A DNA stretch of 64,000 bases from Oscillatoria acuminata PCC 6304 (GCF_000317105.1 NC_019693.1:3967227-4031226); one strand, 5' to 3'; shown: positions 10,107 to 45,900, counted from the first letter of the stretch. Numbers and translations are program-made. The notes: generated by a model not told the origin, from the sequence alone.

Positions 10107-10557
10107 AGGGGAGACCTAACCCCCCAACCCCCTTCCCTGGGAGGGAAGGGGGAGCCGGAACGCCCCTTTCGTTGTAGGGGATTGGAGAGTATCAAAGCCC
10201 CTCCCCTCTTAGGGGAGGGGTTTGGGGAGAGGTCCTCCGGCAGAGGTCCCGACCTAAAGGGGAGACCTAACCCCCCAACCCCCTTCCCTAGGAGGGAAGG
10301 GGGAGCCGGAGCGCCCCTTTCTTCCTAGGGAAGGGGGAGAATCAAAGCCCCTCCCCTCTTAGGGGAGGGGTTTGGGGAGAGGTCCTCCGGCAGAGGTCCC
10401 GACCTAAAGGGGAGACCTAACCCCCCAACCCCCTTCCCTAGGAGGGAAGGGGGAGCCGGAGCGCCCCTCCCCTCAGAGGGAAGGGGGAGAATCAAAGCCC
10501 CTCCCCTCTGAGGGGAGGGGTTTGGGGAGAGGTCCTCCGGCAGAGCCCCCGACCTAA
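10107..10557. repeat. Tandem array of three 150-bp units between convergent genes, built from the MITE-family hairpins
   Basis: Unit starts at 10111, 10261 and 10411 are almost identical ('gagacctaaccccccaacccccttccctaggagggaagggggagccggagcgcccc...cccctcccctcttaggggagggg...gacctaaag'). Exact 150-bp period. Confidence 0.8.
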
Positions 10558-18700: not shown

Positions 18701-21566
18701 GTTGCAAATTCGGGCTATCTTCACGGACCATCGTCACAGTTTCCCAAACGGCGGGATGTTGGGCTAAAGTGGCTTCAATTTCTGAGAGTTCAATTCGATA
18801 TCCCCGCAGTTTAACTTGGCGATCGCTACGTCCAATTACCTCCAATTTGCCATCCGGTAACCATCGCCCTAAATCCCCAGTTTTATAAAGGCGATCGCCT
18901 GGAGAATTGCTAAACGGATGGGGTATAAATTTCTCGTGTGTGAGTTCGGGACGGTTGAGATAGCCTCGTGCCAAACCTTTCCCCCCGATATGCAGTTCCC
19001 CGGGAACACCGATGGGAACAGGTTGCAAGTGAGAATCCAGAACATAGATTTCCGTATGGGGGAGGGGATAGCCGATGGGGACTTCTCGACCATTGCCAGC
19101 TTCTACCTGGGACAAATCGCACTTCGTCGCCGCGATGGTGGTTTCGGTGGGTCCGTAGGCGTTGAGCAGTTGTACCCCCTTACCCACTTGGTGATGCCAA
19201 GTTTTTAGGCGATCGGGCAGTGCTTTTTCGCTACCAATGATCGCCAGTCGCACCGATGGGGGTAAGCTCAGTTTCTCCACCGCCATCCGTGCGGTTAGTT
19301 CATGCCAGTAAGCTGTCGGCAAGTTTAGGACGGTAATTCTCCACTCTTGGCACTGTTGCAAGAATCCGGTGATGGATTGGATCATAGTATCGGTTCGCAG
19401 CACTAGGGTCGCGCCACAAGTGAGACTAGTGTAAATTTCCTCAGCGCTGGTATCGAAACTGATGGAAGCAAATTGCAACGGGCGATCATGACGGGTAATT
19501 CCGTATTCTATTTGAGCTACTTGAGTATAAGTGACTAAACCCCGATGAGGAATAGCGACCCCTTTCGGTTTGCCCGTTGATCCCGAAGTATAAATTACAT
19601 ACGCCAAATGGTCTGGGGTGACTCCGCTGGTAGGATTTTCGGTGCTACATTGGGAAATTGCCTGCCAATCAGCATCTAAAGCAAGGGACTGGGTAACGAA
19701 GGGGGTAAATTTATCCCGGATCTGCTGCTGGGTGAGCAAAATCGGCACTGCGGCATCTTCTAACATCCCCTGCAAGCGATCGCGAGGATAGGCAGGGTCG
19801 AGGGGTAAATAAGCACCGCCTGCTTTGAGAATGCCTAAGAGTCCCACGAGCATTTCTAAGGAGCGATCGCAGCATAACCCGACCAAAATATCCGGTCCAA
19901 CCCCTAACCCTTGTAAGTAATGCGCCAGTTGATTGGCTTTGGCGTTCAGTTCGCGATAAGTGAGATGAGCATCTTGATACTGGACGGCTACCGCATCCGG
20001 GGACTGGTTCACCTGGGTTTCAAATAAGTGATGAACGCACCGATTTTCCAAGGGTTCAGGCTGCGATCGCCACCGTCCGGCATTACTCCAGTCCATCAGA
20101 AGTTGATGCCGTTCCCCCTCGGTTAATAAAGAAATCTCACCAATTCGGCGGATCGGGTCCGCCACCATTGCTTCTAAAACGGTTTTTAAATACCCGAGCA
20201 TTCTCACAATACTCTCCCGTTCAAACAAATCCGTACTATACTCAATGGAAGCCGCCAGTCCGTCGGTATATTCCGTGACGCTCAAACTCAGGTCAAATTG
20301 AGTCGTGCCTCGTTCAACGGCGAGGGATTGTAAGGTGAGTCCGGGTAGTTCCAGGGTGGCGGTCGGTGCATTTTGTAAGACAAACATCACCTGGAAGATC
20401 GGCGATCGGCTCAAATCTCGTTCCGGGTGTAATTCTTCCACTAATTTTTCAAAAGGCAGATCCTGATGGCTGTAAGCCCCCAGAGAGACATCGCGCACCC
20501 GATGCAGCAATTCTTGAACCGTGGGGTTGCCTCCGAGGTCCGTATGCAGGGCCAGGGAATTGACAAAAAAGCCGATTGCCTCTTCAATTTCCGCCCGGTT
20601 ACGGTTGGCGATCGGTGAACCTACCACAATGTTTTCCTGGCCGGAATAACGGTAGAGTAAAGTTTTGAACCCTGCCAACAGGGTCATAAACAAGGTCACC
20701 CCTTCGGCTTTGGAAAGGGCTTTCAGGGCTTCCGTAAGGGATTTGGACAGGCGGGTTGATTCCGTCGCCCCTTGATAGGTTTGCACCGCCACCCGGGGGC
20801 GATCGCTGGGTAAATCCAGGGCTGCCGGTGCATTCTTTAAGTGTTGTTTCCAGTATGACAACTGGGCATCTAACACCTCACCTTGTAAATAACCACGCTG
20901 CCAGACGGCAAAATCAGCGTATTGGATGGGTAATTCCGGCAGTGGAGAAGGTTTACCTTGGGAGAAGGCTTGATACAAGGCGGCTAACTCCCGGATAATT
21001 ATGCCGGTAGACCAGCCATCGGAGACGATATGATGGAGGGTAAATAAAACAATATATTCTGTATCTTCTAGCTGCAATAACGTCGATCGCAGCAATGGCC
21101 CGGTCGTGAGGTTAAAAGGAGTCTGGGCTTCCCGAGTGGCAAGGCGCAACGCTTCCCCTTCCCGTTCCGAAGGGGGAACCTGGCGCAGGTCAATCCGTGG
21201 CAAGGGGACAGGTTGCGCGGGGTTGAGCATTTGCATGGGCTCCCCTGCCACTTCTTTAAACGTAGTGCGAATCACTTCATGCCGTCTGACAATTTCGGTG
21301 AGACTCTGTTCTAAGGCGGGGATATGGAGAACTCCTGTCAGACGGATGGCGTAAGGCAGGTTATAAAACGAACTGTTGGGTTCCAGGCGATCGAGAAACC
21401 ACAACCGCGCTTGAGAGAAGGAAGAGATAAAGGTATCGGTCGATCGCGGTTGACAGGCGATCGTATTAGTTGATGCCGTTCTCGGCTTTTTCTGTTGCAA
21501 TCGTTGCAGCAATAACGCTCGTTTTTCAGGAGAAAGAGAGGCAATGCGTTGAGAAATATCGCTCAT
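15786..21566 (-). CDS. NRPS termination module C-A(N-methyltransferase)-T-R. ORF open to 21662, probable ATG start at 21566.
   Basis: C domain ('HHIVSDGWS'). A domain ('LAYVIYTSGSTGKPKGV', 'NAYGPTETT'). SAM MT insert between A8 and A10 ('VLEIGCGTGLMLF', ~17350-18650). T domain ('FFDLGGHSLL'). C-terminal SDR thioester reductase ('LLTGATGFLG...YIQSKWVAEKLL', ~15789-16890). The first 32 codons of the 21662 ORF are encoded by a repeat element. Confidence 0.85.
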   Translation of the reverse strand: MSDISQRIASLSPEKRALLLQRLQQKKPRTASTNTIACQPRSTDTFISSFSQARLWFLDRLEPNSSFYNLPYAIRLTGVLHIPALEQSLTEIVRRHEVIRTTFKEVAGEPMQMLNPAQPVPLPRIDLRQVPPSEREGEALRLATREAQTPFNLTTGPLLRSTLLQLEDTEYIVLFTLHHIVSDGWSTGIIIRELAALYQAFSQGKPSPLPELPIQYADFAVWQRGYLQGEVLDAQLSYWKQHLKNAPAALDLPSDRPRVAVQTYQGATESTRLSKSLTEALKALSKAEGVTLFMTLLAGFKTLLYRYSGQENIVVGSPIANRNRAEIEEAIGFFVNSLALHTDLGGNPTVQELLHRVRDVSLGAYSHQDLPFEKLVEELHPERDLSRSPIFQVMFVLQNAPTATLELPGLTLQSLAVERGTTQFDLSLSVTEYTDGLAASIEYSTDLFERESIVRMLGYLKTVLEAMVADPIRRIGEISLLTEGERHQLLMDWSNAGRWRSQPEPLENRCVHHLFETQVNQSPDAVAVQYQDAHLTYRELNAKANQLAHYLQGLGVGPDILVGLCCDRSLEMLVGLLGILKAGGAYLPLDPAYPRDRLQGMLEDAAVPILLTQQQIRDKFTPFVTQSLALDADWQAISQCSTENPTSGVTPDHLAYVIYTSGSTGKPKGVAIPHRGLVTYTQVAQIEYGITRHDRPLQFASISFDTSAEEIYTSLTCGATLVLRTDTMIQSITGFLQQCQEWRITVLNLPTAYWHELTARMAVEKLSLPPSVRLAIIGSEKALPDRLKTWHHQVGKGVQLLNAYGPTETTIAATKCDLSQVEAGNGREVPIGYPLPHTEIYVLDSHLQPVPIGVPGELHIGGKGLARGYLNRPELTHEKFIPHPFSNSPGDRLYKTGDLGRWLPDGKLEVIGRSDRQVKLRGYRIELSEIEATLAQHPAVWETVTMVREDSPNLQQLVSYFVLNPQFNFESQVSTLIEERLSQWQVVHDDENFNETDSQWDSTFNISGWNSSYTGLPIPELEMREWVNNTVSRILDLKPNRVLEIGCGTGLMLFKIAPHCSQYWGSDFSPASLNHIRQQLAQPGQNLPQVKLLERMADNFDGIESHSFDAVIINSVIQYFPTVDYLLQVIEGSLDAVAPGGMIFLGDLRSYPLLEAFHTSIELYQAPASLSIDKLQQRIKKRLIEEEELAISPEFFRALKQQFPQISRVEIQPKQGIYHNELNKFRYDVTLHLGPEISAVPEYSEWDWQQEHLTLDSLRDRLHCDRPNILALRSIPNARVLADVKAVQLLATSSDIQTVDGLQKAVKQAISGIGIDPENLAKLGTELGYVTIFSWLNSSLDGSYDTLFIHPNNVPMIKGCWGDFLYENYPLSIQPWNRYTNNPLQGQQRRHLVGELRQYLQQKLPEYAVPSAFVILEHLPLTPNGKVDRKALPAPDTSRPDMQGTFVAPRTILEEKIAQIWSEILGLEKVGIEDNFFDLGGHSLLITQLSSRVRDTFTVDLPLRDLFAVPTVAGLAQQIERATQQESPVVNISSVDFQAEIVLNGSFSPLGTFQFNPNPAHILLTGATGFLGAFLLEELLQKTSTEIYCLVRASNAAEAKKRIQSNLETYGLWRNSLGERIIPLVGNLAKPRLGLSAEQFQALAHQIDVIYHNGALVNFTYPYSAVKAANVASTLDLLKLSNQVHLKPLHFISTVGVFDSTATEEDELANIDHLEGGYIQSKWVAEKLLMAARDRGFPINIYRPGRITGHSQTGACNVNDFVHRIIGGCIQLGSAPNWNTEVEMVPVDYVSRAIVHLSQQPQSMGKNFHLVNSQTLPWGEFVSWVRSQGYPLEPVTYPQWREQLHQQAANSTDNALYPLLSVFSDSGSGDRTATSSPLEIGDRYTQTALQGTDITCPPVSEKLLTTYFSYLVHSGYLPTTQKLARV

Positions 21567-21597
21567 GAGTTTTAGGGGATAAATACTGGTATGTGGA

Positions 21598-21656
21598 ACA
21601 CCCGCAGGCTGAAGCCTGGGGCTATACGGACGAAGCCTGCCTGCGCAGGCTGAAGA
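21598..21656. repeat. REP-like double-hairpin element, reverse orientation ('cccgcaggctgaagcctggggctatacggacgaagcctgcctgcgcaggctg')
   Basis: Reverse-complement homolog of 21766-21818 and 43683-43740, with compensatory stem changes. Confidence 0.6.
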
Positions 21657-21765
21657 GTACAATAGGTTTTTAACAACCGAATTGGGATGATTTATTTTTT
21701 GAAATATCCTAACTAGACTGGGCCATAATACCCAATTCGGCTGTTAACAGTTAGCTTTCTCTATT

Positions 21766-21818
21766 AGCCCGCGCAGGCGGGCTTTGTCTGTGTAGCCCCA
21801 CCCTTTAGGGTGCGGTTT
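21766..21818. repeat. REP-like double-hairpin element ('agcccgc gcag gcgggct' + 'gccccaccc ttta gggtgcgg'), forward orientation
   Basis: About 90% identical to 43685-43737. It forms an inverted pair with 21598-21656 across the NRPS intergenic region. Confidence 0.65.
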
Positions 21819-21819
21819 T

Positions 21820-24800
21820 TTATGCTAACAGAGATTGCACCTCGTCATCGGAGAGTTGCTCTAATTCTGCTAGGGTTTGGGCCAATAAATCGCTATCGGC
21901 TTGTTCTGCTAATTTCTGAGTAATAATTAAGGAAAAATCCTCAATCGTGGGAGTTTCAAAAAAGTGCATTAACGGCACATCAACTTCAAAAGATTGACGG
22001 ACCCGTGACATGACTTGAGTGGCTAATAAAGAATGTCCCCCCAAATCGAAAAAGAAATTATCTCGAATTCCCACGCGATCGCAATTCAAAACCTCGCGCC
22101 AAATTTGAGCCAATTGTTCCTCAGTCGCCGTCCGAGGGGGCATAAAAGTATTCCCAGGTTCCAGATGTTCGGGGGTGGGTAATCCCCGGCGATCGACCTT
22201 GCCATTGGGGGTTAAGGGTAGCGCCTCTAGGACCATCACTGACACAGGCACCATATAAGGCGGCAGTTTCTCACTCAGATACTGGCGCAGTTCCTCCGCT
22301 AGTTCCGGAGTAGGCGCATCTTCGGGAACCACATAGGCGACTAATTGCTTGTGATCAGCTTGATCGCCAACCGCCACAACCACCGATGCGCGCACCGCAG
22401 GATGTTGCATCACCGTCGCTTCGATTTCCCCGGGTTCGATGCGATGTCCGCGAATCTTCACCTGGAAGTCTACACGGCTCAAAAATTCGATATTGCCATC
22501 GGGTAAATAGCGCCCCATATCTCCTGTGCGATACAGTTGTTCGCCGGTTCGAGGATGAGTAATGAAATTTTCCCGGGTCTTTGCTTCATTGCGCCAGTAC
22601 CCTTGGGCAAGTCCAACCCCGGCACAATACATTTGACCCGGAACCCAAACCGGGCGGTCTTCTAAAGCGTCATTTAAGATGTAATACCGATTATTGGCGA
22701 TGGGTTTGCCGTAGGGAATACTTTTTTGGTGGGGAGAAATCACCTTTACTGGATAATAGATGTTCCATAGGGTTGTCTCAGTAGGTCCACCAACACTGAC
22801 TAATTGCACATTCGGGGCAGTTGCTTTCAGACGACTGGGAAGGGAGACGGGTATCCAATCTCCCCCCAAAAAAGCTAAACGCAAATGAGGGAATGTAAGG
22901 TGAAGATCAGGCGTGAGATATTCGAGTAACATTTCCATCATTGCCGGGACGGAATTCCAGAGTGTCACCTGTTCCTGTTGCAGCAACTGTGTCCAATGGG
23001 CCGGATCTCGCCGCGCTGCTGCATCGGGAATCACCAGAGTACCTCCGGCAGCTAGAATGCCGAAGATATCGAAGACAGACATATCGTGATGTAGGGCGGT
23101 TAAGGCGATCGCCCGGTCGGAGGCGGTAATCTCAAAGCGCTGGTTTGTCGCAATGACCGTATTTACAACGGACCGATGGGCGATTGCCACCCCTTTCGGT
23201 AAGCCTGTAGACCCAGAGGTATAAATCACATAAGCTAAGTCATCCCCTGTATTCACCGAGGGTAAGGGTGCAGAATTGGCACTGGATAACTCTTGTCCAT
23301 CCACACAAATCGGCTGAATTCCCGCAGGTAACACCCGAGTCCCCAGGAGTTTAGACTGAGTGAGTACCTGCTGCACTCCCCCATCCTGTAACAGATAGTC
23401 GAGGCGTTCTTGGGGTAATTCCGGGTCGAGGGGTAAATAAGCCGCCCCTGCCGCTAGAATGCCCAATACAGCGACGATTTGCTCCCATCCCTTTTCCATG
23501 AATACCGCGACTAGGGTATTGGGACGCGCCCCTAACTCCCGCAAGCGATATCCCAAATGTTGCGATCGCTCATAGACTTCCCTGTAAGTGAGAGTACAAT
23601 CGGAGGTGGTGATAGCCACTTGTTCCGGCGCTTCCTGGAGGCGATCGCAAAACAACTGATACAGGGTTGTATCAGGCATGGGGGCATCGGTGGCGTTGAT
23701 GGCAGCGCGTTGCTGGAGTTGTTCTTCGGGAACCAGCGACTGGCCAATTTCCTGCCAGCCTCCCTCTCCCTCAGCGAGGCGACTGAGTAGCTGGCTATAG
23801 GCTTGAAACATCGCTTCTACCACCCCAGGGGCGAACCGATTCTCTACTGCGTCAAAGTTAAAAATTAATGCGCCGTTGCTCTCACGATACATAAAATCGA
23901 GCCAGACTTGCGGGGTTTGAGCCAGACTGTAGGCGATCGCCCCCAAGTCCACCGGGGCATCAACGGGGGTAGTTTCCTTCCCGTTCACATCTTGGGGAGA
24001 ACTGGTAAACACAATCGGCATGGTGACCCCGAGGGTATTCCCTTGATACCTTGCCAGTTCTCGTAGGACCCGCACCCCACTCACATATTGATGTTCCAAA
24101 TCTTGCCAGAGTTGCTGTTGTAGGCGCTTTGCTCTCACTTCAAAGGAGTTGGGTTCGGAAAAATCCACCTCCAACAGGGTAAAGGAGGCAAATTCACCGA
24201 TCAGGTGATTGACTTGGGGATGGAGAGGAAAGCGATCGAACCGGGGCACATTAATCGTAAATCGGGGATTTTTGCTCCAGGTGGCCAAAACTTCCGCATA
24301 GGCAGCTAGTAACAATCCGGCAGGGGTAACATTTGCTCGTGCCGCCCGGGTTTTGAGTTTTTGCCAAATCTCTGCATCTAATGTGGACCGACGGCGCACA
24401 AACTGGGAGCCCTGGGGCGCTGCGCCAGTGTTGGCAAGGGGGAGTTCTGGGGCCGGGGGTAAAGTGGGGATACGTTGTTGCCAATAAGTCAGAGATTTCT
24501 GATAAATCTCCGAAGTTTGCAGGTCTAGCAATCCTTGCACATAATCTCGGAATGACAGGTCTAGGGGAGGGAGTGTACAGTCCGGGTCTTGGTAGAGTTG
24601 GATCAGTTCTTTGGATAAGATTTGGTAACTGCGGGCATCGAAGAATATACCGTCGATACTGATATGAAGACGATAGTGGCGATCGCCTAGGTGGGAGGCG
24701 CAAATTTCGTATAAGGGCCAGCGGTCCGAGGGAATGACTTGATGAGAGAGGCGATCGCGCACCGCTTGCAATTCAGCCGCAATCACCTCCTCAGATTTGC

Positions 24801-25269
24801 CCCGTAAATCCCCGACTTTAATCTCGTAAGGGGGCAGATTTTCTAAGATTTGTTGTTGACCATCCGGCAGTACAATGGCCTTGAGCATATCATGACGCTC
24901 AATCAACCGTTGCCATGCCCGATTAAAGCGGTCTAAATCTAAATTTTGGCTCTCGGTTTCAAAATAAGTATGAATCGACACATTGCCCGATTCAAAAAAG
25001 CTATTTCTGCCAATCCAATAGGCTTGCTGCATATCCGTCAACGGAAAAGGCAGATGCCGCATTTCCGGATTTTGGGCAATTTGAGGCAGGGAATACACAG
25101 CCTCTCGTTCCTGATTTTTTGATTTATTAACCGCAGCCAATTGACCGCGCAACCGCTGGGATAATAAGGCTTGTTTCGCGGCAGAGAGTTGAGAGCGTTT
25201 TTCGGCGTTGATGGGTTCAGACATGAATTTGAGTTTACGAATAAAACAGGACAACTTTCGCAGGGACAA
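21820..25269 (-). CDS. NRPS heterocyclisation module Cy-A-T (thiazoline/oxazoline-forming)
   Basis: Cy signatures 'FPLTDMQQAYWIGR' and 'DGIFFDARS' (DxxxxDxxS in place of HHxxxDG). A domain 'LAYVIYTSGSTGLPKGV'. T domain 'FFFDLGGHSLLATQV'. The ORF begins at a TTG at 25269; the ATG at 25224 (MSEPINAEK) is more likely. Confidence 0.85.
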   Translation of the reverse strand: MSLRKLSCFIRKLKFMSEPINAEKRSQLSAAKQALLSQRLRGQLAAVNKSKNQEREAVYSLPQIAQNPEMRHLPFPLTDMQQAYWIGRNSFFESGNVSIHTYFETESQNLDLDRFNRAWQRLIERHDMLKAIVLPDGQQQILENLPPYEIKVGDLRGKSEEVIAAELQAVRDRLSHQVIPSDRWPLYEICASHLGDRHYRLHISIDGIFFDARSYQILSKELIQLYQDPDCTLPPLDLSFRDYVQGLLDLQTSEIYQKSLTYWQQRIPTLPPAPELPLANTGAAPQGSQFVRRRSTLDAEIWQKLKTRAARANVTPAGLLLAAYAEVLATWSKNPRFTINVPRFDRFPLHPQVNHLIGEFASFTLLEVDFSEPNSFEVRAKRLQQQLWQDLEHQYVSGVRVLRELARYQGNTLGVTMPIVFTSSPQDVNGKETTPVDAPVDLGAIAYSLAQTPQVWLDFMYRESNGALIFNFDAVENRFAPGVVEAMFQAYSQLLSRLAEGEGGWQEIGQSLVPEEQLQQRAAINATDAPMPDTTLYQLFCDRLQEAPEQVAITTSDCTLTYREVYERSQHLGYRLRELGARPNTLVAVFMEKGWEQIVAVLGILAAGAAYLPLDPELPQERLDYLLQDGGVQQVLTQSKLLGTRVLPAGIQPICVDGQELSSANSAPLPSVNTGDDLAYVIYTSGSTGLPKGVAIAHRSVVNTVIATNQRFEITASDRAIALTALHHDMSVFDIFGILAAGGTLVIPDAAARRDPAHWTQLLQQEQVTLWNSVPAMMEMLLEYLTPDLHLTFPHLRLAFLGGDWIPVSLPSRLKATAPNVQLVSVGGPTETTLWNIYYPVKVISPHQKSIPYGKPIANNRYYILNDALEDRPVWVPGQMYCAGVGLAQGYWRNEAKTRENFITHPRTGEQLYRTGDMGRYLPDGNIEFLSRVDFQVKIRGHRIEPGEIEATVMQHPAVRASVVVAVGDQADHKQLVAYVVPEDAPTPELAEELRQYLSEKLPPYMVPVSVMVLEALPLTPNGKVDRRGLPTPEHLEPGNTFMPPRTATEEQLAQIWREVLNCDRVGIRDNFFFDLGGHSLLATQVMSRVRQSFEVDVPLMHFFETPTIEDFSLIITQKLAEQADSDLLAQTLAELEQLSDDEVQSLLA

Positions 25270-25293
25270 GGCAATGCCTTGCCCTTCTGCGCT

Positions 25294-28200: not shown

Positions 28201-28383
28201 TCCCGCTGCAATCATATCCGCGTCGGAGAAAAAGGAGATAGATTCTACTCCTTGTTGTAAATTTTGCCAAAATTGTTCAACAGAATCGGCCCCGGGAAAG
28301 CGAATTGCCATACCAACAATCGCTATGGCATCTAGGTTTTCTATGGGTTCGGAAAAGTTATTCATGGGTTCTACTTGTGGCAA
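25294..28383 (-). CDS. Type I PKS module KS-AT-ACP (malonyl-specific AT, no reductive domains)
   Basis: KS 'QTACSTSLVAVH', 'HGTGTALGDP', 'NIGHLDAAAG'. AT 'GHSIGEYVAA' plus 'HAFH' (malonyl). Carrier 'FFELGGHSLLATQV'. Confidence 0.85.
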   Translation of the reverse strand: MPQVEPMNNFSEPIENLDAIAIVGMAIRFPGADSVEQFWQNLQQGVESISFFSDADMIAAGLNPELIQNPRYVKARSILENVEQFDAKFFGFTPREAAITDPQHRILLECAWESLENAGYNSETYPGRIGVYAGMGLSSYSLFNLYPNRDLIESVGVFQTLISNDKDFLPTRISYQLNLRGPSVNVQTACSTSLVAVHIACQSLLNGECDMALAGAASIRVPQQSGYLYQEESILSPDGHCRPFDANAQGTVFGNGAGIVVLKRLDNAIADGDTIRAIIKGSAINNDGHLKVGYTAPSVAGQAEAIAEAMAVANVNPETVSYIQTHGTGTALGDPIEIAALTQVFSRYTDKKACCALGSVKSNIGHLDAAAGIAGLIQTVLALEHQAIPPTLHFESPNPQIDFENSPFYLNAKLSEWPEGETPRRAGVSSFGIGGTNAHVVLEEAPILSQPRTNSRDPKLLAISAKTASALEQATQNLGQYLKIHSDCNLADVAYTLQVGRQGFNYRRVVVAETAEAAAIALSSREPQSVFSGECTTVNPPVTFMFPGQGSQYVNMGQGLYDNQPIFREWVDRACELLLPHLGLDLRTLLYPEPDREAATTEQLAQTQFTQPALFVIEYATAQLWQSWGIQPTAAIGHSIGEYVAACLAGVFSFEDALGLVAVRGRLMQQLPGGSMLAVCLSAEEVRSHLEDSLSLATINSPSLCAVSGKTEAIAQLERQLTATGITCRRLHTSHAFHSPMMEPILDEFRDRVAQVRRNAPQLPFISNLTGTWITPEEAIDPDYWANHLRQPVQFSDGITEVLNQGYSIFLEVGPGWTLSTLTQQQVHPKSSRTILSSLRHPRDEQSDLAFLLATAGRLWLSGVEIDWMAFSPQESPRRIPLPTYPFQRQRYWIDPPQFTRQNTTRELPKFPAHSETIQDGETDSETVLSSSYIAPRNDLEQALAEIWQELLGIEKVGINDNFFELGGHSLLATQVLSRIATTLDVKVPMRRLMETATIAELAVAIEEELIAEMEGLSEEEAERLLLQA

Positions 28384-28427
28384 CGGTAAGGGATAAAATG
28401 ACTAATTTAGGCTAAATTTAAGGGAGC

Positions 28428-28566
28428 ATCTCAATTTTGCCTACCAACCGAATTGACCTCTCCCCCCTACCCCCCTCCCCTGCAAGGGGAGGGGGAAATT
28501 TATGTCTTTCTCCCCCTTCCCTCGTAGGGAAGGGGGCTGGGGGGTTAGGTCTCTTTTCAAAATTGA
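28428..28566. repeat. MITE-like element copy ('gacctctcccccctacccccctcccctgcaaggggaggggg...cccccttccctcgtagggaagggggctggggggttaggtctcttttcaaaattgagatc')
   Basis: Same family as 150-330, 51000-51150 and 63225-63430. Its right end supplies the last codons and stop of the decarboxylase gene. Confidence 0.65.
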
Positions 28567-30188: not shown

Positions 30189-30241
30189 GATAGTGACTCA
30201 ATCCAAATACTTTTACAAAGGGTTAGGGTTGTGATGAGGGA

Positions 30242-33559: not shown

Positions 33560-33590
33560 TGCACCCTCTCCTAAATGTTACCTGATACCC

Positions 33591-36500: not shown

Positions 36501-39500
36501 GCAATCCTCTGGGGATAAGCCTTGTAGGTCAATCACCGGGAGGGTAAAGGGAGTTGCGGGGATGATCTGCTGCACCGGATGTCTGTTAACCGTGACAAAT
36601 TGAGTTCTCAGGATTTCGTGACGGCGCACAATTTCCGTGAAACACTGTTCTAAGGCGGTAGGGTTCAGTTTTCCGGTAATTCTAACGGCGCGAGGCAGGT
36701 TGTATGACGGGCTGCCCGGGTCGAGGCGGTCCAAAAACCAGAGTCGTTGTTGGGCAAAGGATAGAGGCGCAGTTTCACCCCGAGAGGTGGGAACAATGGC
36801 GGGAATTTCTAAGCCCAGTTCCGCCTGAATTGCCTGTTCGATCCGTTCGGCGAGAGTGCCGAGGGTGGTGGCTTCAAAGAGGGTTTTCAGGGGTAATTCC
36901 ACCTGGAATGTCGCCCGTAATCGGGAAATTGCCTGGGTTGCCAGCAGGGAATGACCTCCGAGGGCAAAAAAGTCATCGTGGATGCTGATCGCCGGGCAAT
37001 GTAACAGTTCCGCCCAAATCCCGGCGATCGCAGCTTCCACAGGGGTGCTTGGGGCGATATACTCCGTCGCTGTTGCTAACTGAGTATCCGGGGTAGGGAG
37101 GGCGCGGCGATCGCGTTTACCGTTGGCAGTCAAGGGTAAGCTATCCATCGCCACAAATGCTGTCGGTATCATATACTCCTGCAACCGTTGTGCTAGAAAC
37201 TCCCGAATTGCCTCAGTGTCCAGCTTCCCAGATGGGACTATATAGGCGACGAGGCGGGGGTTTCCCGGTTCATCTTCTCGCAATGTGACCACCGTTTCGC
37301 GGACTGTGGGATGCTGGGCGAGGACTGTTTCAATTTCCCCTAATTCAATCCGGAACCCGCGAATTTTCACCTGTTCGTCTACCCGTCCCAGAAATTCAAT
37401 GGTCCCGTCGGGGAGATAGCGGGCGCGATCGCCGGTTTTGTAGAGGCGATTTTCTGGGGAAGTCTGGAAGGGATTCGGGATAAATTTATCTTGAGTGAGT
37501 TCGGGACGGTTAAGGTAACCCCGGGCTACTCCGGCCCCTCCGATATACAATTCTCCGGTGACACCAATGGGGACAGGTTGCTGATGCTGATCCAGGATAT
37601 AAATTTGGGTATTCGCAATGGCACTCCCCAGAGGGACTGTTTTCGCGTAGGGAGGATGAGTTTGGGGTACTTCGTAAGTCAGGACCCCGACGGTGGTTTC
37701 TGTGGGTCCGTAATGGTTGAAAATCCGGCAATTGGGAGCCGATTCGCGGATGGTGGCGACTGCCTCCCAAGTTGCGGTTTCCCCACCCAGGACCAAACAA
37801 TGCCGAGGTAGGATATCACTGGGGCGATCGCCGCCTAACAGGGCCATTAAATGACTGGGGACAATTTTCAGGCAGTCGATGGGATGCTGCCGGAAGTATT
37901 CTGCAAGTGCCTCGGGGTCTGAGGACCGCATTTTAGAAATAATATGCAAAGTTCCGCCACATAATGCTGGAAAAATTACTGTATTTCCCAAGTCTGCTGA
38001 CAAGGTGGAGACTAAGGCAAAACTCCCGGGAGTGGGTAAGTTCAGCCGGTCCTGAATGGCGTAACAATAATTCAAAATTTGCCGATGGGCGATCGCCACT
38101 GCTTTCGGTTGTCCAGTCGAACCGGAGGTAAACAGAATATAGGCTAAGTTGTTTTCCGTCGCACTTGGGGCTAAATTTTCGGCACTTTCTCCCTGGAGGG
38201 TATCTCCATCCAGACAGACAAAGGGACAGTTTGGTAAGCGATGGGAGAGGCTTTGTTCTGTTACCACAGCCACAGGCTGAATGTCCTGCAAGCGCAGGGA
38301 TAGAGCTTCCAAAGGCAATTCGGCATCTAAGGGGAGATACGCGCCCCCGGCTTTGAGAATCCCCAGCATGGCGACGAGGGAGAGGTGAGAACGATGGGTC
38401 AAAATGCCAACCACGGCATCGGGACCGACTCCCAATTTCTTTAGGTAATGTGCCAGTTGATTGCTTTGTTCATTTAACTGGCGATAGGTGAGGTGGGTTT
38501 CTTCAAAGACTAAGGCGATCGCATCCGGACTATTGTTAACTGCTTCCTCAAATAGTTGATGCATCCCCTCTTTGATGGGGTAAGACTTCTCGGTTTGATT
38601 CAGTTGAAAGAGAAACTGCCGCTGGGGTTCCGGGAGAATCGGTAACTGAGAAATACCTTGAGTGGGATGGGCGATCGCCTGAATTAGCAGAGTCTCGAAT
38701 TGTTCGGCTAACTGTTGGATATAGTCGTTTGAATAGTGATTTTTATCATAACTTAATTCAGCCTTTAATCCATGAGTCAAAGCTGTAACAGTTAATTTAA
38801 CTTGAAATGGCTCACTGTGGGTAAACGGCTGAGTAATAGAAAAGGAAATTCCATCCACCGACTGAGGTCCCGGGAGGCTGATAAACTCAAATCCGATGGG
38901 AAACCCTACCCGATGGAATTCTAAGGACTCGCTATGAATATAGTCTTGCCATTCCACCGATTCAGTTAAAGATTTCGTCGTTAAATTCACGGCTTTTTTT
39001 AGAGACAATTCTCCCGCCAGATGCAAACGAACCGGCAGGCAATGGCTCAATAATCCAAAGACTGATTCTAATTCTTCATAATCATCGCGGATATTATAAA
39101 TCGTCCCCACAATAAGTTCTGATTCCCCTGAGATTCGATGGAGGAGAATCTGCCAACAAGTCAGCAACAAGACGGCAGGAGAAATTTCCCACTGTTGCGC
39201 TAAGGTTTGAAGTTGGGTTCCCCCTTGAGAGTCAATCGTCCAGGAATAACTCTCGGGAGTAAAAGGTTCCTGAATAGGGGTGAGGATTTGTAACGGCAGT
39301 TTCATCCGTTCTAAGGCAGAGAAATCTTGTTGTTGCCAATAGGCTAAACCAGATTCCACTTCCCCTGCTTCCCCTAATAATTCATGTTGCCATTCGGAGA
39401 ATTGAACATATTGCACCCCCTCTTCCTCGGAGGCATCATCCAATTGACCGGAATAGGCGAGACTAACTTCGGCTACCCAATTTTTGAGAGTGCCATTATC

Positions 39501-39932
39501 CCCACATAAAGCCGGTATGCTAACTATTAACAGCAGTTGATTCGCTGCCAGAGTGATAGCCAAAACTCGCAGGTTAGAATCCTTTTCTCCATCAAAAGAG
39601 ATAGATTTTTCTGTGGTAAAAATAGCTTGAATTTTGCCTTGGACATCTTCAGGAGAAACCGCATTAAAATCAAGGGTTTGCCAATAAAACCCACTTTGAT
39701 TGTCAATTACCATCACCGGGGTTTTCATCCCCGGGATGCGACGAAATTGGGTCCTCAAAATATCGTGGCGATTCACCACCGTTTGGATGGCAGATTGTAA
39801 CCGTTCGAGGTCAACTTTTCCGGAAATGAGAACGCTACATTGAGCGCGATAAGCTGGATTTTCTGCCTGATAGGACCACAAGCGTTTTTGTTGGGGGGAA
39901 AGCCGAAAACCGGCTTGATGATTACTGTGCAT
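33591..39932 (-). CDS. NRPS, two modules: N-terminal C-like domain lacking HHxxxDG, then A-T-C-A-T
   Basis: N-terminal domain has 'GFRLSPQQKRLW...' with 'VSIPALCGDNGTL' at the HHxxxDG position. A1 'LAYILFTSGSTGQPKAV' with 'LSADLGNT' (Asp-like D235/L236/T239 by eye). Canonical C 'HHIVSDGWS'. A2 'LAYVIYTSGSTGKPKGA'. Two T domains. Confidence 0.85.
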   Translation of the reverse strand: MHSNHQAGFRLSPQQKRLWSYQAENPAYRAQCSVLISGKVDLERLQSAIQTVVNRHDILRTQFRRIPGMKTPVMVIDNQSGFYWQTLDFNAVSPEDVQGKIQAIFTTEKSISFDGEKDSNLRVLAITLAANQLLLIVSIPALCGDNGTLKNWVAEVSLAYSGQLDDASEEEGVQYVQFSEWQHELLGEAGEVESGLAYWQQQDFSALERMKLPLQILTPIQEPFTPESYSWTIDSQGGTQLQTLAQQWEISPAVLLLTCWQILLHRISGESELIVGTIYNIRDDYEELESVFGLLSHCLPVRLHLAGELSLKKAVNLTTKSLTESVEWQDYIHSESLEFHRVGFPIGFEFISLPGPQSVDGISFSITQPFTHSEPFQVKLTVTALTHGLKAELSYDKNHYSNDYIQQLAEQFETLLIQAIAHPTQGISQLPILPEPQRQFLFQLNQTEKSYPIKEGMHQLFEEAVNNSPDAIALVFEETHLTYRQLNEQSNQLAHYLKKLGVGPDAVVGILTHRSHLSLVAMLGILKAGGAYLPLDAELPLEALSLRLQDIQPVAVVTEQSLSHRLPNCPFVCLDGDTLQGESAENLAPSATENNLAYILFTSGSTGQPKAVAIAHRQILNYCYAIQDRLNLPTPGSFALVSTLSADLGNTVIFPALCGGTLHIISKMRSSDPEALAEYFRQHPIDCLKIVPSHLMALLGGDRPSDILPRHCLVLGGETATWEAVATIRESAPNCRIFNHYGPTETTVGVLTYEVPQTHPPYAKTVPLGSAIANTQIYILDQHQQPVPIGVTGELYIGGAGVARGYLNRPELTQDKFIPNPFQTSPENRLYKTGDRARYLPDGTIEFLGRVDEQVKIRGFRIELGEIETVLAQHPTVRETVVTLREDEPGNPRLVAYIVPSGKLDTEAIREFLAQRLQEYMIPTAFVAMDSLPLTANGKRDRRALPTPDTQLATATEYIAPSTPVEAAIAGIWAELLHCPAISIHDDFFALGGHSLLATQAISRLRATFQVELPLKTLFEATTLGTLAERIEQAIQAELGLEIPAIVPTSRGETAPLSFAQQRLWFLDRLDPGSPSYNLPRAVRITGKLNPTALEQCFTEIVRRHEILRTQFVTVNRHPVQQIIPATPFTLPVIDLQGLSPEDCEAEVRRLTEAEAGQGFNLESSRLLRGQLLQLSATEWVLLFTLHHIVSDGWSTAVLIRELAALYPAFSEGKPSPLPALPIQYADFALWQKNWLQGAVLETQLGYWKQQLGGSLPVLELPTDKPRPPVQTFRGNSESLTLPYPLSESLKQLSGRQGVTLYMTLLAAFKTLLYRYSGQEDILVGSPIANRNHGEIEQSIGFFVNTLVLRTNLSDSPSFSQLLTRVRDVTLGAYAHQDLPFEKLVEALQPERDLSRSPLFQVMFIFQNAPVTPLELPGLTLEPLEHRNGTAKYDLSLYVRETESGLQATWEYNTDLFEPATIQRMQGHWQTLLEAVATAPETPISHLPLLTPTEEQQLLGQWNQTQADYPQTACLHQLFEAQVELTPEEVAVEFAGVHLTYRQLNAKANQLAHYLQGLGVEPERLVGLCIDRSVEMVIALLGILKAGGAYVPLDPSYPPERLEFMVSDSQVPILLTTEQLLSELPENQALVLCLDTEWSAIAHQSDENPVSGIEPDNLAYVIYTSGSTGKPKGAMNTHRGICNRLLWMQDSYELTASDRVLQKTPFSFDVSVWEFFWPLLTGARLIVAQPDGHKDSTYLVKLIAESQITTVHFVPSMLQVFLEERGLENCHSLRQVFCSGEALPKELADRFLARLGAKLHNLYGPTEAAVDVTFWECDRASPLNIVPIGRPVANTQIYILDPSLQPVPIGVKGELYIGGVQLARGYLNRPELTAEKFIQNPFDEPGQRLYKTGDLVRYLPNGDIDYLGRIDNQVKLRGYRIELGEIEAVLAQHPQVQQSVVTLREERLVAYWVKASTELIFPDLKGFLKTKLPAYMVPTAFVELETLPLTPNGKIDRKSLPEPDFTGPQETWVAPRTALEQQLAELWSEVLGIERIGLYDNFFELGGHSLLATQLISRIREVFQVELPLKTLFEATTIAQLGEAVAQGQAPVKVPAIARASRQGRQVKRSELN

Positions 39933-42900
39933 GAGCTTCCTCCATAACTGGGAATTGAATATCTGCTCGCTGCACCATTTCCCCCATTGCTACGACAATT
40001 TTCCGGGGTCCGACGAAGGGGTTACGACTATGAGCAGCCAGCATATTATCTAACATGACCACATCTCCTTGTTGCCAGGAAAATGTGACGGCGAGGTTTT
40101 CATAGAGAGTGGCAATTTCAGCGATGGTTTCCTCTTCTATTGCCGAACCATCTCCATAATAAACGTTGCGGGGTAATTTATTTTCTCCAAACAAAGAAAG
40201 TAATGATTCCCGCACAGAAACATCCAAACAGCCAATGTGATGTAACAGGATTTGATTGAAAAATACCCATTCTCCGGTTTGCGGATGCTTGGCGATCGCC
40301 GGTTGAATTTTTTCCGTTCTTAATCCATTATCGGGCAACCATTGGCAGCGAATTCCCGCTTGATTGCAATAGTTTTCAACCACGGCGCGCTCATCGGTAT
40401 GGAAAAATTCTTGCCAACTGACATCTAATCCTTCCGTAAAAGTCCGGACATACATTAGCTGCTTTTGAGCTAATTTTTCTCGGATTTGAGGGTTGAGATA
40501 TTGATAGACTTTCCGACAATCCACAATCGGGGTTTCGCCCCCTTCCTGCGCCGGTTGAGCACAGAAAAACCAGATTTTTAAGGGCCAACAATGGAGATGA
40601 GAACTTTCATTATGAAAGAGAATGGCTTTATCCGCTGGATAGGGAGTCGAACCATAAACTTTACCGCTGATTCCCTCCCGAGGCAAATCTCCATATTCGC
40701 CAAATAGTTGGGGACAAATTCCTTGGGCGAATTGCTCAAAATTCCCCGGAGTTTGCAATCCAAAATTGCGGAATAAAATACCACCATGCTGCTGCAACTG
40801 GGTTTGGATAAACTCGCGGTTATGAGTCGCCCATTCCACGGCATCTAGTTCGGAAACACGGGGGGTAATGACCAGGGGAAAGGTTTCACCGGGGGTTAAA
40901 TACTCGGTGTTGATTAATCGTTCTGGGGATAAATCAACGGTTTGCGCTTGCACCGCTTTAAAGGTTTTTAATTTCAGGGACTTACGCGCTTGTTTTTGCA
41001 TAGCTTGTTGTTCTCGTTCGGATTCCGGGATGAAGTCGAGGGCGTCCAGGCGACTATCGGATTGGGTGGAAATATTGCTGAGTAAGGTGACAAAATGATG
41101 GGAAAACTTGACAATTGCACCCTCCTCAAATTTGTCAGCATTGTACTGCCATTTTCCCGCAATTCCCGATTCAGTTTCCGTTAGAAATAGGGCGATATCA
41201 AAGCGGGCGATGCCGGTATCCACTGCCACGGGTTCCAGGGTTAACCCGGACAGTTCTAAGGGCGGCATGGGTGCATTTTGTAAGACAAACAGCACTTGGA
41301 ATAAGGGATTGGCAGTAGACTGGCGATCGGGACGCAAGGTTTCTACCAATTTCTCAAACGGAACATCCTGATGGGCGTAAGCATCTAAGGTGACTTGTTT
41401 CACCCGGGTTAACAGTTCCCGAAATGAAGGATTTCCTGACAAATTCGTGCGTAAGACGAGGAGATTTATGAAAAATCCGATTAATCCCTCGGTTTCCAGG
41501 GAACTGCGGTTGGCGAGGTCCGTTCCCACCACTACATCATCACATTGAGTATAGCGGTAGAGGAGGGTCTGGAATCCTGCCAACAGGGTCATAAACAGGG
41601 TGACATTTTCTTGGTGACTGAGGACCTGCACCCCACGGGCCACCTCTGCCGGAATTTGGAAGGTATAGGTTGCCCCTTTTCGGCTGCTGATGGGCAGTTG
41701 GGAACGAGAACCGGGCAAGTTGAGGACCGGGAGAGTTCCCCCTAACTGCTGCTTCCAGTATGCCAATTTATGCTCTAATATTTCCCCTTGTAAGACATGA
41801 CGCTGCCATACCGCAAAATCAGCATACTGGATGGGCAGTTCCGGAAGGGCTACGGATTTTCCGGTGGAAAAGGCGTCATACAGGGTTGCTATTTCTCGAA
41901 TCAATACCCCCATTGACCAGCCATCGGCAATAATGTGGTGTAAGACGAGAACCAACAGGCGATCGCCCTCATGTTGGATCAGGGTAACTCGCAATAGCGG
42001 AAGCTGTTCTAAATCAAAGGGTTTGAGGGATTCTGCTACAGCAGTTTTCACCCCCTCTGCCTCCCAGTCTTCCGAGGCAACTTCGGACAAATCCAGAGTC
42101 ACGATGTTTACCCGCAATTGCGGCGCAATGGCTTGGATCGGTTGTCCGTCAATAGCGGGAAAGCTCGTCCGTAGGGCTTCGTGACGGTCAATTACCGCAT
42201 TGAGACTTGCCTCCAATGCTGCTTCATCCAAGTTCCCCGTCAGCCGCAGGACCGCCGGTATATTATAGGTTGCCGTTCCGGGTTCCAATTGTTCCAGGAA
42301 CCACAAGCGTTGCTGGGCAAAGGATAGCGGTAAATTCTGATTCCGAGAGACGGGCATCAGGGGGAAGCTGGCGGTTACGGTTGCACCTGAAATCCGGGAT
42401 GCAAACTCTCTCACTGTGGGCGATTCAAACAAACTCCGCAGGGGGAGTTCCACCTGGAATGTATGAGGAATCCGGGATATCAGTTGAGTTGCCAGTAAGG
42501 AATGACCCCCTAACTCGAAGAAATTCTCCTCAACCCCGACTTGTTCTAACCCCAGAACCTGCGCCCAAATCTCGGTTAACTGTTGTTCTAGGGGAGTTGC
42601 CGGGGCAATGTGAGCCTCTTTTCCTTGGCGACTGGGGGCAGGAAGGGCTTTCCGGTCAATTTTACCATTGGGGGTTAATGGCAAAGTGTCTAAGACGACA
42701 AAAGCCGCTGGAATCATGTAATCGGGCAATTGTTGCTTGAGAAGCTGTCGCCATTGAGAACTATTCGGTTCTGCTTGGGGATGTAATACCACATAAGCGA
42801 CTAACCACGTATCTCCCGGGGTATCTTCTCGGGCAATCACGACCCCTTGGCGCACCTCGGGATTCTTTGCCAATACCGACTCTATCTCACCGAGTTCAAT

Positions 42901-45900
42901 CCGGAATCCCCGAATTTTGACTTGATTATCGACCCGTCCGATATATTCTAACGTGCCATCCGGACGATACCGCGCTACATCCCCTGTTTTATAGAGTTTC
43001 ACCTCGGGATTTTCGGCAAAAGGACTGGGGATAAATTTCTCAGAGGTTAATTCCGGCTGATGCAGATATCCGGCTGCCAATCCTGCGCCTCCAATATATA
43101 AATCTCCGGGGATGCCGACAGGAACTGGCTGCAATGCCTGATCCAAGAGGTAAATTTGGGTATTCGCGACTGCCCGTCCGATGGAAACAGTCTCCTCCCC
43201 CGGAGTCACCGGATACAGAGTAGACCAAATGGTAGTTTCCGTCGGTCCATATAAATTCCAGACGGAACCTGCCCGATTACACAACTCATCCGCCAGCAGT
43301 CGCGGCAGGGCTTCCCCGCCACAGAGGATTTTAAGCTGCGGGCGACCCTGCCATCCGCTTTCGATTAACATCCGCCAAGTTGATGGCGTTGCTTGCATGA
43401 CAGTTATCTGTTGCGAGTCCAAAAGTGAGGCTAATTGCTGCCCGTCTGTCGCCACTTCGCGACTGGCAATAATCACGCAAGCGCCTACGGTGAGGGGGAG
43501 AAACAGTTCTAATGCGGCAATATCAAAAATCAGCGTTGTCACCGCTAACAGGCGATCGCCACAAGTTATGCCCGGTTCCCGCTTCATCGAAGTGAGAAAA
43601 TTAACCACACTCCGATGCCGCAATTGCACCCCTTTCGGTCGCCCCGTAGACCCCGACGTATAAATAATATACGCCAAATCCTCAGCCCGCGCAGGCGGGC
43701 TTTGTTCGTATAGCCCCACCCTTCCAGGGTGCGGGTTCATAGCATCCAAACACACCACCCGCGCCTGATGACTGGGTAACGTCGAAATCAGATGCTGCTG
43801 AGTGAGAATCACCCCCGCTTGGGAATGTTCCAGCATATATTGAAGCCGATCGCCCGGAAGTGCAGGGTCCAGAGGAAGATAGGCAGCCCCAGATTTGAGA
43901 ATTCCCAACAGTCCCACCAGCATTTCTAACGAGCGATCGACGTAAAGCGCCACTGCCTGATTCCGTTGTACGCCTATGGATTGCAAATATTGGGCTAACT
44001 GACTGGCGCGATCGCTCAACTCCTGATAAGTGAGAGATTGCCCCTCAAAAACTGCCGCCACTGCATCCGGGGTTTTGGCAACTTGCGCCTCAATTAATTC
44101 ATGAATACAGGCAGTTTCTGGATACTCTGCTGCCGTATCATTCCACTGGTGCAAGAGTTGTGCCTGTTCATTTGCAGTCAACATCGGCATTTCCGATATC
44201 CGGGCGTCGGGACCGGCAACCGCACTTTCTAGCAGGGTTTGGAAATGTCCTAGCATTCGTGAGATTGTCCCTGCCTCGAACAAATCTGTACTATATTCCA
44301 GAGTCGCCAACAATCCTTGACGGGTTTGGGCGATCGCCAGGGTGAGGTCAAACCGGGATTTTTTGCTGTCCAACTCCAGCAGATTTAACCGCAATCCGGG
44401 CAGTTCCAACTCCGCCATTGGGGCATTCTGGAGGACAAACATCACCTGAAAAATTGGACTATGACTCAAAGTGCGACTGGGCTGTAATGCTTCCACAAGT
44501 TGCTCAAAGGGCAAGTCTTGATGAGCATAAGCCCCCAAAGCTACCTCACGCACCCGTCCCATCAACTCCCGAAAACTGGGGGTTCCGGATAAGTCCGTTC
44601 GTAAGACAAGGGTATTGACAAAACAGCCGATTAGCCCTTCAATTTCCCCACGATTCCGGTTAGCGATGGGAGTTCCCACCCGAATATCACTTTGTCCACT
44701 ATAGCGATACAACAAGGTTTGGAACGCCGCCAGGAGGGTCATATACAGAGTCACGCCGGATTGCTGAGAGAGGGTGTTTAGGGCCTCACTCAGTTCAATC
44801 GGCAGGGTGAGAGATTGGGTCGCCCCCCGGAAGGATTGCACCCCTGGACGAGGGTAATCCGTGGGCAAGTCTAATCCGGGCAAATCTCCCCCCAGTTGGC
44901 GCTTCCAATAGTCCATCTGCGCCCCTAACCTGGCCTGATTCAGCCATTGGCGCTGCCACAGGACAAAATCGGCATATTGTACTGCCAGGGCGGGCAAGGG
45001 GGAAATCCTGCCGGTAGAATAGGCACCGTATATCGTCCCTAATTCCTGAATCAGCACCCCCATTGACCAGCCATCGGAAACAATGTGATGAATGACAAAC
45101 AGGAGAATAAATTCATCCGGTTGTAATTGGAACAGGGTCAAGCGGACTAGGGGAGGCTGGGTTAAATCAAAGGGTTGTTGCACCCAGGCAACTGCTAGGG
45201 ATGGTACTTGGGACTCCTCACAGGAAATGACCGGCAGGGTAATTCTCACCTCGGGCATAATTTCCTGGATGACGCAGCCCTCGCCCTCGACAAACCGAGT
45301 CCGTAAGGTGTCGTGACGGCGAGCAATTTCGTTAAAACTCTCTTCTAGGGCGGGAATATTTACCTGACCCTGTAATCGCACAGCAGCCGCACTGTTATAG
45401 GTTCCGGGTTCCAATCCTTCCAAAAACCATAACCGTTCCTGAGAGAAGGAAAGGGGAACTGCGCCGGTTTTGGATACTGGAACGATCTCCGGTATATCCA
45501 GCTTTTCTCCTGCGGCAAGGGAGGTTTCGATGCAGTCGGCTAATTGTGCGAGAGTGGGGGTTTCAAATAGACTCCGCAGGGGCAACTCTACCCCAAATGT
45601 ATCTCGAATTTGAGAGACGAGTTGGGTTACCAGGAGAGAATGTCCCCCGACTTCAAAGAAATTATCTTCTCTGCTAATCGGATGGCGCTGCAACAGTTGC
45701 GCCCAAATCCCTGCCAGCAGTTCTTCTACGGGAGTTCGGGGTGCGATCGCCTCAGACTGACCCTGTAATTCCTCCGGTGTGGGAAGTGCCTGCCGGTTCA
45801 CCTTGCCATTGGGGGTGAGAGGGAAACTGTCCAAGACAGCGAAGGTGCTAGGAATCATGTAATCTGGTAAGCGTTGACTGGCAAACTGCCGCAACTCCCG

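Follow-up and report, generated by a model that had tools for sequence, protein, structure and literature searches.

Three copies of a small double-hairpin repeat were found in a 64,000-nucleotide stretch of DNA of Oscillatoria acuminata PCC 6304 (NC_019693.1:3967227-4031226; hereinafter, the window), located among the genes of nonribosomal peptide synthetases (NRPS). One copy is read in frame within an adenylation (A) domain, and the two others form an inverted pair at the junction of two NRPS genes. These copies most probably belong to a non-autonomous family of small palindromic repeats similar to repetitive extragenic palindromes (REP) and to REP doublets forming hairpins (REPIN); we place the probability of this assignment at about 0.7. 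It is based on the structure of the unit, on its distribution in genomes and on its arrangement relative to genes and to other copies of itself.

Structure of the unit and its distribution

The unit is 52–54 nt long and is composed of hairpin 1, a linker, a four-base tag and hairpin 2, in that order. Hairpin 1, AGCCYGC-GCAG-GCRGGCT (18 nt, 7 bp, with the loop GCAG), is near-invariant; the bases before it are usually TT, not GT, and the linker reads TTYGTnnnT. The tag preceding hairpin 2 is GTAG in 38 and ATAG in 26 of the 80 copies compared, with other variants in the remaining 16. Hairpin 2, about 25 nt in length, corresponds to the scheme CCC-NNNNN-TTNA-NNNNN-(bulge)-GGG, i.e., a foot of three G-C pairs, 4–5 variable inner pairs and a TTNA loop, usually with one bulged base on the 3' side. 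The variant with a 5-nt hairpin-2 loop, which gives a unit of 54 nt, is rare in this general sample (7/80). In two loci (L008 3415-3496 and L088 3844-3925), an insertion of ~24 nt, TCCTTACGGAACGCTACGCGAAC, was observed within the hairpin-2 loop, one small repeat being nested in another.

In the 80 distinct copies, standard pairs occupy 92.3% of the cells, compared with 80.9% after shuffling of the columns and no more than 52.7% after sliding of the partners; the first value is inflated, since only sequences matching an exact hairpin-1 pattern were gathered and those whose hairpin 2 could not fold were removed. Changes on both sides were found at seven of the nine hairpin-2 pairs, and the variety of hairpin-2 stem sequences cannot come from the filter. 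The stem types are represented by ACCC/GGGT, AGGC/GCCT, GGACCC/GGGTTC, GCAGA/TCTGC, GCGAT/ATCGC and others. The forms ACCC/GGGT and AGGC/GCCT are two common subfamilies, which occur together in many genomes.

A covariance model built from the 80 copies was run over the window and detected exactly three full copies (Table 1), while the next match, scoring 14 bits, originates from a different repeat family. A degenerate hairpin-1 pattern with up to three mismatches gave three matches in the window versus 0.12 expected. Given this excess, as well as scores of 73.7–78.7 bits against 14 bits, a chance origin of the window copies is excluded. The repeat had been noticed earlier by a model from the nucleotide sequence alone (below, the sequence-only reading); all three of its copies were recovered, with coordinates shifted by at most a few bases, and the identity of ~90% that it gave for the 43684 and 21766 copies corresponds to six differing positions out of 54, or about 89%. 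Compensatory stem changes, which it ascribed to the 21598 copy, are indeed present in both hairpins, C-G being replaced by T-A in hairpin 1 and CC/GG by GG/CC in hairpin 2, with both stems intact. They are not, however, a product of local evolution, since the two hairpin-2 subfamilies coexist across many genomes.

Species-representative genomes were scanned with the pattern AGCCYGCGCAGGCRGGCTTYGT, and the repeat was found at at least 120 loci, none of those listed overlapping the window; hairpin 2 is present at the expected distance in nearly all of them. The covariance model recognized 172 copies in 100 of the listed loci. Accordingly, the suggestion that the repeat belongs to a dispersed family holds beyond the window, and its interpretation as a chance similarity or a local tract fails, because further copies are present in so many loci of other genomes. 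Among Cyanobacteria, the listed hosts are Oscillatoria, Hormoscilla, Laspinema, Potamolinea, Microcoleus, Crinalium, Aerosakkonema, Nostocaceae and Cyanomargarita. Chloroflexota are represented by Chloroflexia, Roseiflexaceae, Oscillochloris, Thermomicrobiales, Ktedonobacterales and Anaerolineales, and further listed hosts belong to Armatimonadota, Gemmatimonadota (Longimicrobia) and one Myxococcales bin. The unit is also carried by plasmids of Gloeothece PCC 7424 and PCC 7822. Repeat flanks of the window recur in Oscillatoria sp. HE19RPO and Laspinema. A literature search revealed no paper on the hairpin sequence itself.

Gene contexts were classified by approximate gene calls for 97 cyanobacterial copies among the matches listed. 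Thirty-four copies are located between tandem genes, 27 between convergent and four between divergent genes, 28 at locus edges and four within open reading frame (ORF) calls, only one of which is a credible gene. About 97% of copies are extragenic, and their usual position is close to the 3' end of a gene, the median distance from a copy to the nearest gene 3' end being 87 nt. Relative to the gene with the nearest 3' end, 40 of 53 copies have the opposite orientation and 13 the same. Adjacent copies less than 400 nt apart are arranged directly in 18 cases and head-to-head, with hairpins 1 facing each other, in 11; tail-to-tail pairs are absent. Many more head-to-head pairs, with spacers from 0 to about 270 nt, are contained in the covariance-model table.

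The genes beside the copies belong to unrelated housekeeping families, as shown by all-against-all ORF clustering and by scanning 150 neighbouring ORFs against Pfam. No gene, insertion sequence (IS) or transposase recurs beside the copies, either in the ORF clustering over the 120 listed loci or among the 150 ORFs scanned against Pfam. The domain Uma2 was encountered four times among these 150 ORFs, a number attributed to how common this domain is in these phyla. In some loci the unit forms tandem clusters (L022 1384-1856, L049 3290-3790, L062 3406-3542 and L037 5240-5661) with periods of 72–76 or 181 nt and identical inter-unit sequences; such clusters could be mistaken for arrays by software searching for clustered, regularly spaced short palindromic repeats (CRISPR).

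Copies within genes and between NRPS genes

The 43684 copy is located in the second A domain of a 2913-aa NRPS, where, read on the minus strand, it makes up exactly 18 codons, NPHPGRVGLYEQSPPARA (residues 1643-1660). These residues are situated between ...VVCLDAM and EDLAYIIYTSGSTG, in the interval separating the core motifs A2 and A3. The A2–A3 spacing in the copy-bearing domain is 67 residues, the same as in two paralogous A domains, and 65 in a third one; in the 120 closest database homologues, 69 of the 95 intervals measured also have 67 residues, with a range of 64–76. The copy therefore adds no length to the protein, as had been proposed, and, since the spacing is unchanged, the unit replaces the native segment ...(D/E)WxAIAxxSxENPxSG(V/I)xx. 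Replacement as opposed to insertion is judged here from length statistics, because no database orthologue of the copy-bearing A domain exceeds 59% identity.

In the AlphaFold2 (AF2) model of the A domain (mean pLDDT 85, pTM 0.83), confidence is low only at the termini and at residues 241-260, which form a coil flanked by the strands VVCLD and LAYIIYT; the repeat encodes residues 244-261. The core motifs of this domain are intact. The model thus suggests that the copy is tolerated in a variable surface loop, predicted as a low-confidence coil. The 18 odd residues of A domain 2 should be treated as repeat-derived in the prediction of substrate specificity and in module alignments.

Copies of the unit were also found inside genes of other families. 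In Potamolinea (L001), two tandem units are in frame in a gene of the phenylacetate-CoA-ligase family (PaaK-like). Against the 501-aa baseline of this family, lengths of 519, 521 and 542 aa occur in close relatives and 538 aa in a more distant one. The extra residues are confined to one loop, reading ...GLxEQSPPARA..., and at the DNA level these insertions are true copies of the unit, with 50.9–66.4 bits. A filled site (L121) exceeds an empty one (L123) in length by 54 nt exactly, and no flank is duplicated. The empty homologue P0124 is closer to the Potamolinea protein than the filled P0133 (80% identical to P0121 vs 77%); therefore, the unit must have been either inserted more than once or lost. 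An E2 acyltransferase of an Anaerolineales bin (L106) has an in-frame copy, ...EAQSPPARA, in the linker between its domains.

A microhomology, TGGAAG, is apparent at the PaaK insertion site, although it may be an alignment artefact. One loop of this conserved cyanobacterial PaaK-like ligase, ...PVAALQ-QGG-RGIH... (P0121-P0240, alignment columns 410-490), is a hot spot where several unrelated small repeats have been inserted in frame in different lineages; an example is the 'GGQDAHPT'-type repeat in P0199, P0191 and P0180.

The copies in the PaaK-like, E2 acyltransferase and NRPS genes all lie in one orientation and are read in one codon phase. Stop codons are absent from five of the unit's six frames, and hence the use of one frame by three independent hosts (probability of about 0.04) is only suggestive. 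All intragenic cyanobacterial copies have the 5-nt hairpin-2 loop and the 54-nt length that are rare in the general sample, as is expected if only variants with a length that is a multiple of three survive in coding sequences. The family provides a clean example of small repeats tolerated in surface loops of enzymes, including a large NRPS.

At the junction of the two co-directional NRPS genes, the 21598 and 21766 copies constitute a head-to-head dimer, and the inverted structure of ~220 bp described in the sequence-only reading measures 222 nt. Head-to-head dimers are the usual arrangement of the family, so this pair is a standard family dimer, not peculiar to the NRPS junction. The left part of the dimer spacer is homologous to the 5' leader of the copies in Oscillatoria sp. 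HE19RPO. If the dimer is removed, the gap between the two genes is about 31 nt.

The mechanical ORF 15786..21662 begins with TTG, and its codons 1-32 are encoded wholly by the repeat plus its flanks; for this reason, the N-terminal extension is very probably spurious, as suspected earlier, and the likely start is ATG 21566. Translation from this codon gives the N-terminus MSDISQRIASLSPEKRALLLQRL, which resembles MSEPINAEKRSQLSAAKQALLSQRL of the neighbouring NRPS gene, and brings the Condensation domain to residue 45. We recommend that the start of the C-A(MT)-T-R gene be annotated at this ATG. A mechanical TTG extension, of 15 codons (25224-25269, minus strand), is likewise present in the neighbouring ORF 21820..25269, the likely start of which is the ATG giving MSEPINAEK.... 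The possibility that the 21766 copy supplies C-terminal codons to the upstream gene was ruled out, the docking-type tail of the latter (Table 1) being similar to that of a neighbouring polyketide synthase (PKS), ...LSEEEAERLLLQA*.

Because the dimer is inverted, the sense RNA of the region 21560-21830 can fold into a single long, imperfect hairpin with an energy of -103.9 kcal/mol, compared with -69.2 ± 4.2 for shuffled sequences (z = -8.2). As to the internal terminator proposed in the sequence-only reading, a scan of positions 21300-22100 with a terminator consensus revealed two sites with a hairpin followed by a T-tract, both on the plus strand and antisense to the NRPS genes; a canonical sense terminator is therefore unsupported. 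In the 21766 copy, the T-tract follows hairpin 2 on the plus strand only; on the sense strand this copy is read in reverse, with an A-run ahead of it. The hairpins on the sense strand are followed by GUGUUCC, and the 21598 copy by GUGUUCCACAU. The long sense hairpin may have a role in attenuation, RNA processing or stabilization. Direct and inverted copies located 22 kb apart in one biosynthetic cluster could also serve as substrates for deletion or inversion.

Table 1. Copies of the double-hairpin unit in the window and the features associated with them (positions counted from the first nucleotide of the window).
Feature	Position	Strand	Comment
Double-hairpin copy, intergenic	21766-21819	+	78.7 bits (covariance model); abuts the stop codon 21820-21822 of NRPS gene 21820..25269
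Double-hairpin copy, inverted	21598-21651	-	75.7 bits; AGGC/GCCT hairpin-2 subfamily; T-A hairpin-1 variant; 31 nt upstream of ATG 21566
Double-hairpin copy, intragenic	43684-43737	+	73.7 bits; 54 nt; 5-nt hairpin-2 loop; inside NRPS ORF 39922..48663
Head-to-head REPIN-like dimer, 222 nt	21598..21819		Between two co-directional NRPS genes; sense RNA forms one long hairpin
Dimer spacer, 114 nt	21652..21765		Inner inverted repeat at about 21672-21686 and 21730-21747
Upstream NRPS gene	21820..25269	-	C-terminal docking-type tail ...LSDDEVQSLLA* ends right beside the 21766 copy
Very probably spurious 32-codon N-terminal extension, TTG 21662	21567..21662	-	Repeat plus flanks; start of mechanical ORF 15786..21662
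Probable true start ATG of the C-A(MT)-T-R NRPS gene 15786..21566	21564..21566	-	Condensation domain from residue 45
Host NRPS gene, 2913 aa	39922..48663	-	In-frame copy in the second A domain

Origin of the repeat and alternative explanations

As a REP/REPIN-like element, the unit would spread within genomes and between phyla, settling mostly just 3' of genes, often as head-to-head dimers. One such dimer would have come to lie in the short gap separating two co-transcribed NRPS genes, where the resulting long intercistronic RNA hairpin may affect the processing or stability of the mRNA. A single unit would now fill 18 codons of a variable A-domain surface loop, and it would survive there as a sequence with a length that is a multiple of three, free of stop codons in the frame used and encoding a flexible peptide rich in Pro, Gly, Ser and Ala. 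A Y1 (HUH) transposase of the REP-associated type (RAYT) may mobilize the unit in the form of single-stranded DNA; single-strand transposition mediated by RAYT is a tentative proposal, which we consider less probable than the REP-like nature of the unit itself and clearly below even odds.

A number of observations weigh against this reading. Hairpin 1, the best-conserved part of the unit, has no counterpart in classical single-hairpin REPs, and its invariance is partly due to the construction of the sample. The unit carries the tag [GA]TAG instead of the GT[AG]G canonical for REPs. A cognate transposase was not found, the Y1-transposase motif (searched as a regular expression) being absent from the window and from 119 of the 120 listed loci. 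The sole RayT among the listed loci (L027 4044-5670, Oscillatoria sp. HE19RPO; PF01797, Y1_Tnp; RayT in its source annotation; 186 aa, NHYH...YIHLNP) has another palindrome, GAAACCCGGTTTC, on either side, repeated in arrays every 83 nt. The window contains no copy of GAAACCCGGTTTC, and L027 looks like a textbook REP-RAYT locus for another repeat. The double-hairpin unit is also absent from 80 metagenomic loci of the L027 RayT family. Finally, the NRPS copy swaps 18 codons instead of adding them, which simple insertion fails to explain, and a second event or another mechanism is required.

The intragenic copies admit a different account, in which the 54-nt variant is a coding-compatible mobile cassette, copied in by template switching or gene-conversion-like patching at the hairpins, with a mobilizing enzyme other than the common cyanobacterial RayT and recognizing the near-invariant hairpin 1 common to Cyanobacteria, Chloroflexota, Armatimonadota and Gemmatimonadota. 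The length-neutral replacement of 18 codons and the use of one frame (...EQSPPARA) in three protein families would point to such a copy-in mechanism, to which we nevertheless assign a low probability. Selection of the unit as a cis-regulatory RNA element (a terminator, an attenuator, an mRNA stabilizer or an RNase site), with the junction copy setting the stoichiometry of NRPS subunits, appears rather unlikely, though slightly less so. It is consistent with the enrichment of copies 3' of genes, in particular between convergent as compared with divergent ones (27 vs 4), with the bias towards the opposite orientation (40 vs 13), with the conserved covarying structure and the very stable fold of the sense transcript at the junction, and with the T-tract at the end of many Oscillatoria copies. 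However, the T-tract in the window is antisense and no canonical sense terminator is formed; the majority orientation places the A-run ahead of the hairpins on the mRNA; and copies are also found within coding regions, as tandem arrays and, lacking T-tracts, in phyla of high GC content. Location at the 3' ends of genes is equally expected of a mobile element under purifying selection.

The unit might instead be a classical miniature transposable element with inverted repeats (MITE), i.e., an IS deletion derivative moved by a DDE transposase recognizing terminal inverted repeats. Many copies in HE19RPO do lie within a unit of ~100 nt flanked by the inverted repeats TTGGTAAAAGTCGGTTTT ... ACAGACCTTTGACAACCGG, and MITEs are abundant in Cyanobacteria, where they have also been found inside NRPS/PKS toxin genes (PMC3184786). 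In coding sequences, however, the unit is represented by the bare 54-nt double hairpin, devoid of these flanks and terminal inverted repeats; the comparison of filled and empty PaaK-like sites revealed no target duplication, and no transposase gene is recurrent beside the copies among the matches listed. We therefore regard this origin as unlikely, too, and somewhat less plausible than a cis-regulatory one.

Much less probable is that the unit represents a CRISPR repeat, or a CRISPR array that has degenerated, of the Rfam family RF01356 (CRISPR-DR28), even though hairpin 1 together with five linker bases of the 21766 copy coincides with 23 of the 24 consensus positions of this family and scores 37.3 bits at a gathering score of 35. 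Only this copy in the window reaches the gathering score, the second one having 28.1 bits; the window copies are dispersed, with an inverted pair and no array; the 'spacers' of the tandem clusters in L022, L049 and L062 are identical, which makes these clusters plain tandem repeats; the conserved unit exceeds twice the 24-nt length and includes a second covarying hairpin; and no cas family was detected among the 150 neighbouring ORFs scanned. RF01356 itself may have been seeded from tandem clusters of the double-hairpin unit, and matches of CRISPR-DR28 in Cyanobacteria and Chloroflexota are not to be taken as evidence of CRISPR arrays. The lowest probability, close to nil, belongs to a chance similarity or a gene-conversion tract within the cluster: the three copies do fall within 22 kb, but 0 to 0.12 matches are expected, and hundreds of copies are present in unrelated loci and phyla.

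Other elements of the window and comparison with known systems

A second repeat family of the window, CCCCCTTCCCT-N3-AGGGAAGGGGG plus CTGGGGGGTTAGGTC, is represented by 10 copies, at positions 181, 590, 711, 10128, 10279, 10429, 28512, 51047, 51092 and 63260. Two of them are tandem and in frame in the protein 49783..53475, composed of a fatty acyl-AMP ligase, an acyl carrier protein (ACP) and a condensation (C) domain (FAAL-ACP-C), where they encode RPNPPAPFPAREGGE twice in the ACP-to-C linker (aa 774-818); thus this family is also tolerated inside a synthetase. Three tandem 150-nt units, 73–80% identical and containing the second family, occupy positions 10121-10570, directly after the WD40-repeat ORF 8492..10093. 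A region of ~170 nt at 291-462 is 86% identical to sequences of Oscillatoria/Laspinema (L008, L118 and L020) and is probably a further dispersed repeat. A fluoride riboswitch, RF01734, was identified at 2644-2728 on the plus strand, upstream of ORF 2811..4457, with 51.9 bits at a gathering score of 34.

Among known elements, the small dispersed repeats (SDR) of Nostoc described by Elhai et al. in 2008 are reportedly 21–27 nt long and hairpin-forming, with compensatory stem changes, and are said to nest in other repeats. By this description, the double-hairpin unit is similar to them as a small hairpin repeat with compensatory changes, and the 24-nt insertion in L008 and L088 resembles SDR nesting; in contrast to SDR, the unit has two hairpins and, at 52–54 nt, is about twice as long. 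Like the cyanobacterial MITEs Nezha, MaeMITE and the Anabaena mcy MITEs, it is a small, stably folding non-coding repeat, abundant in Cyanobacteria, that can fuse with ORFs or enter NRPS/PKS genes (PMC3184786), but its 54-nt core has neither terminal inverted repeats nor a target-site duplication, while these MITEs are 130–435 bp in length.

The closest reported cases are the cyanobacterial REPs of RAYT subclass 2.4 and the GTAG-12/15/16/23 families (Di Nocera et al. 2013, PMC3733652), with the latter of which the unit was compared by description, not by consensus sequence. GTAG-tagged REP families and their head-to-head dimers are known in both Cyanobacteria and Chloroflexi (PMC3733652). Cyanobacterial REPs of RAYT subclass 2.4 have a 5' GT[AG]G tag and a stem foot of three G-C pairs, and in-frame insertions of REPs into gene loops are also known (Quentin et al. 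2018, PMC6006769). Hairpin 2 of the unit, with its three-G-C foot, is a short GC-rich imperfect palindrome of the same type, and its 5' tag reads GTAG in 38 of the 80 copies. Further features in common with REPs and REPINs are the extragenic location between tandem and convergent genes, high copy number, dimers forming long hairpins, occasional tandem clusters and the presence of the unit in frame within gene loops. Unlike REPs, the unit contains two different hairpins in direct order, of which the untagged hairpin 1 is the most conserved. Elements of this kind are already familiar in bacteria as REPs, and the double-hairpin family is a new example, which adds to the catalogue of REP-like elements a family with a covariance model, a cross-phylum range, head-to-head dimers and in-frame copies filtered by length.

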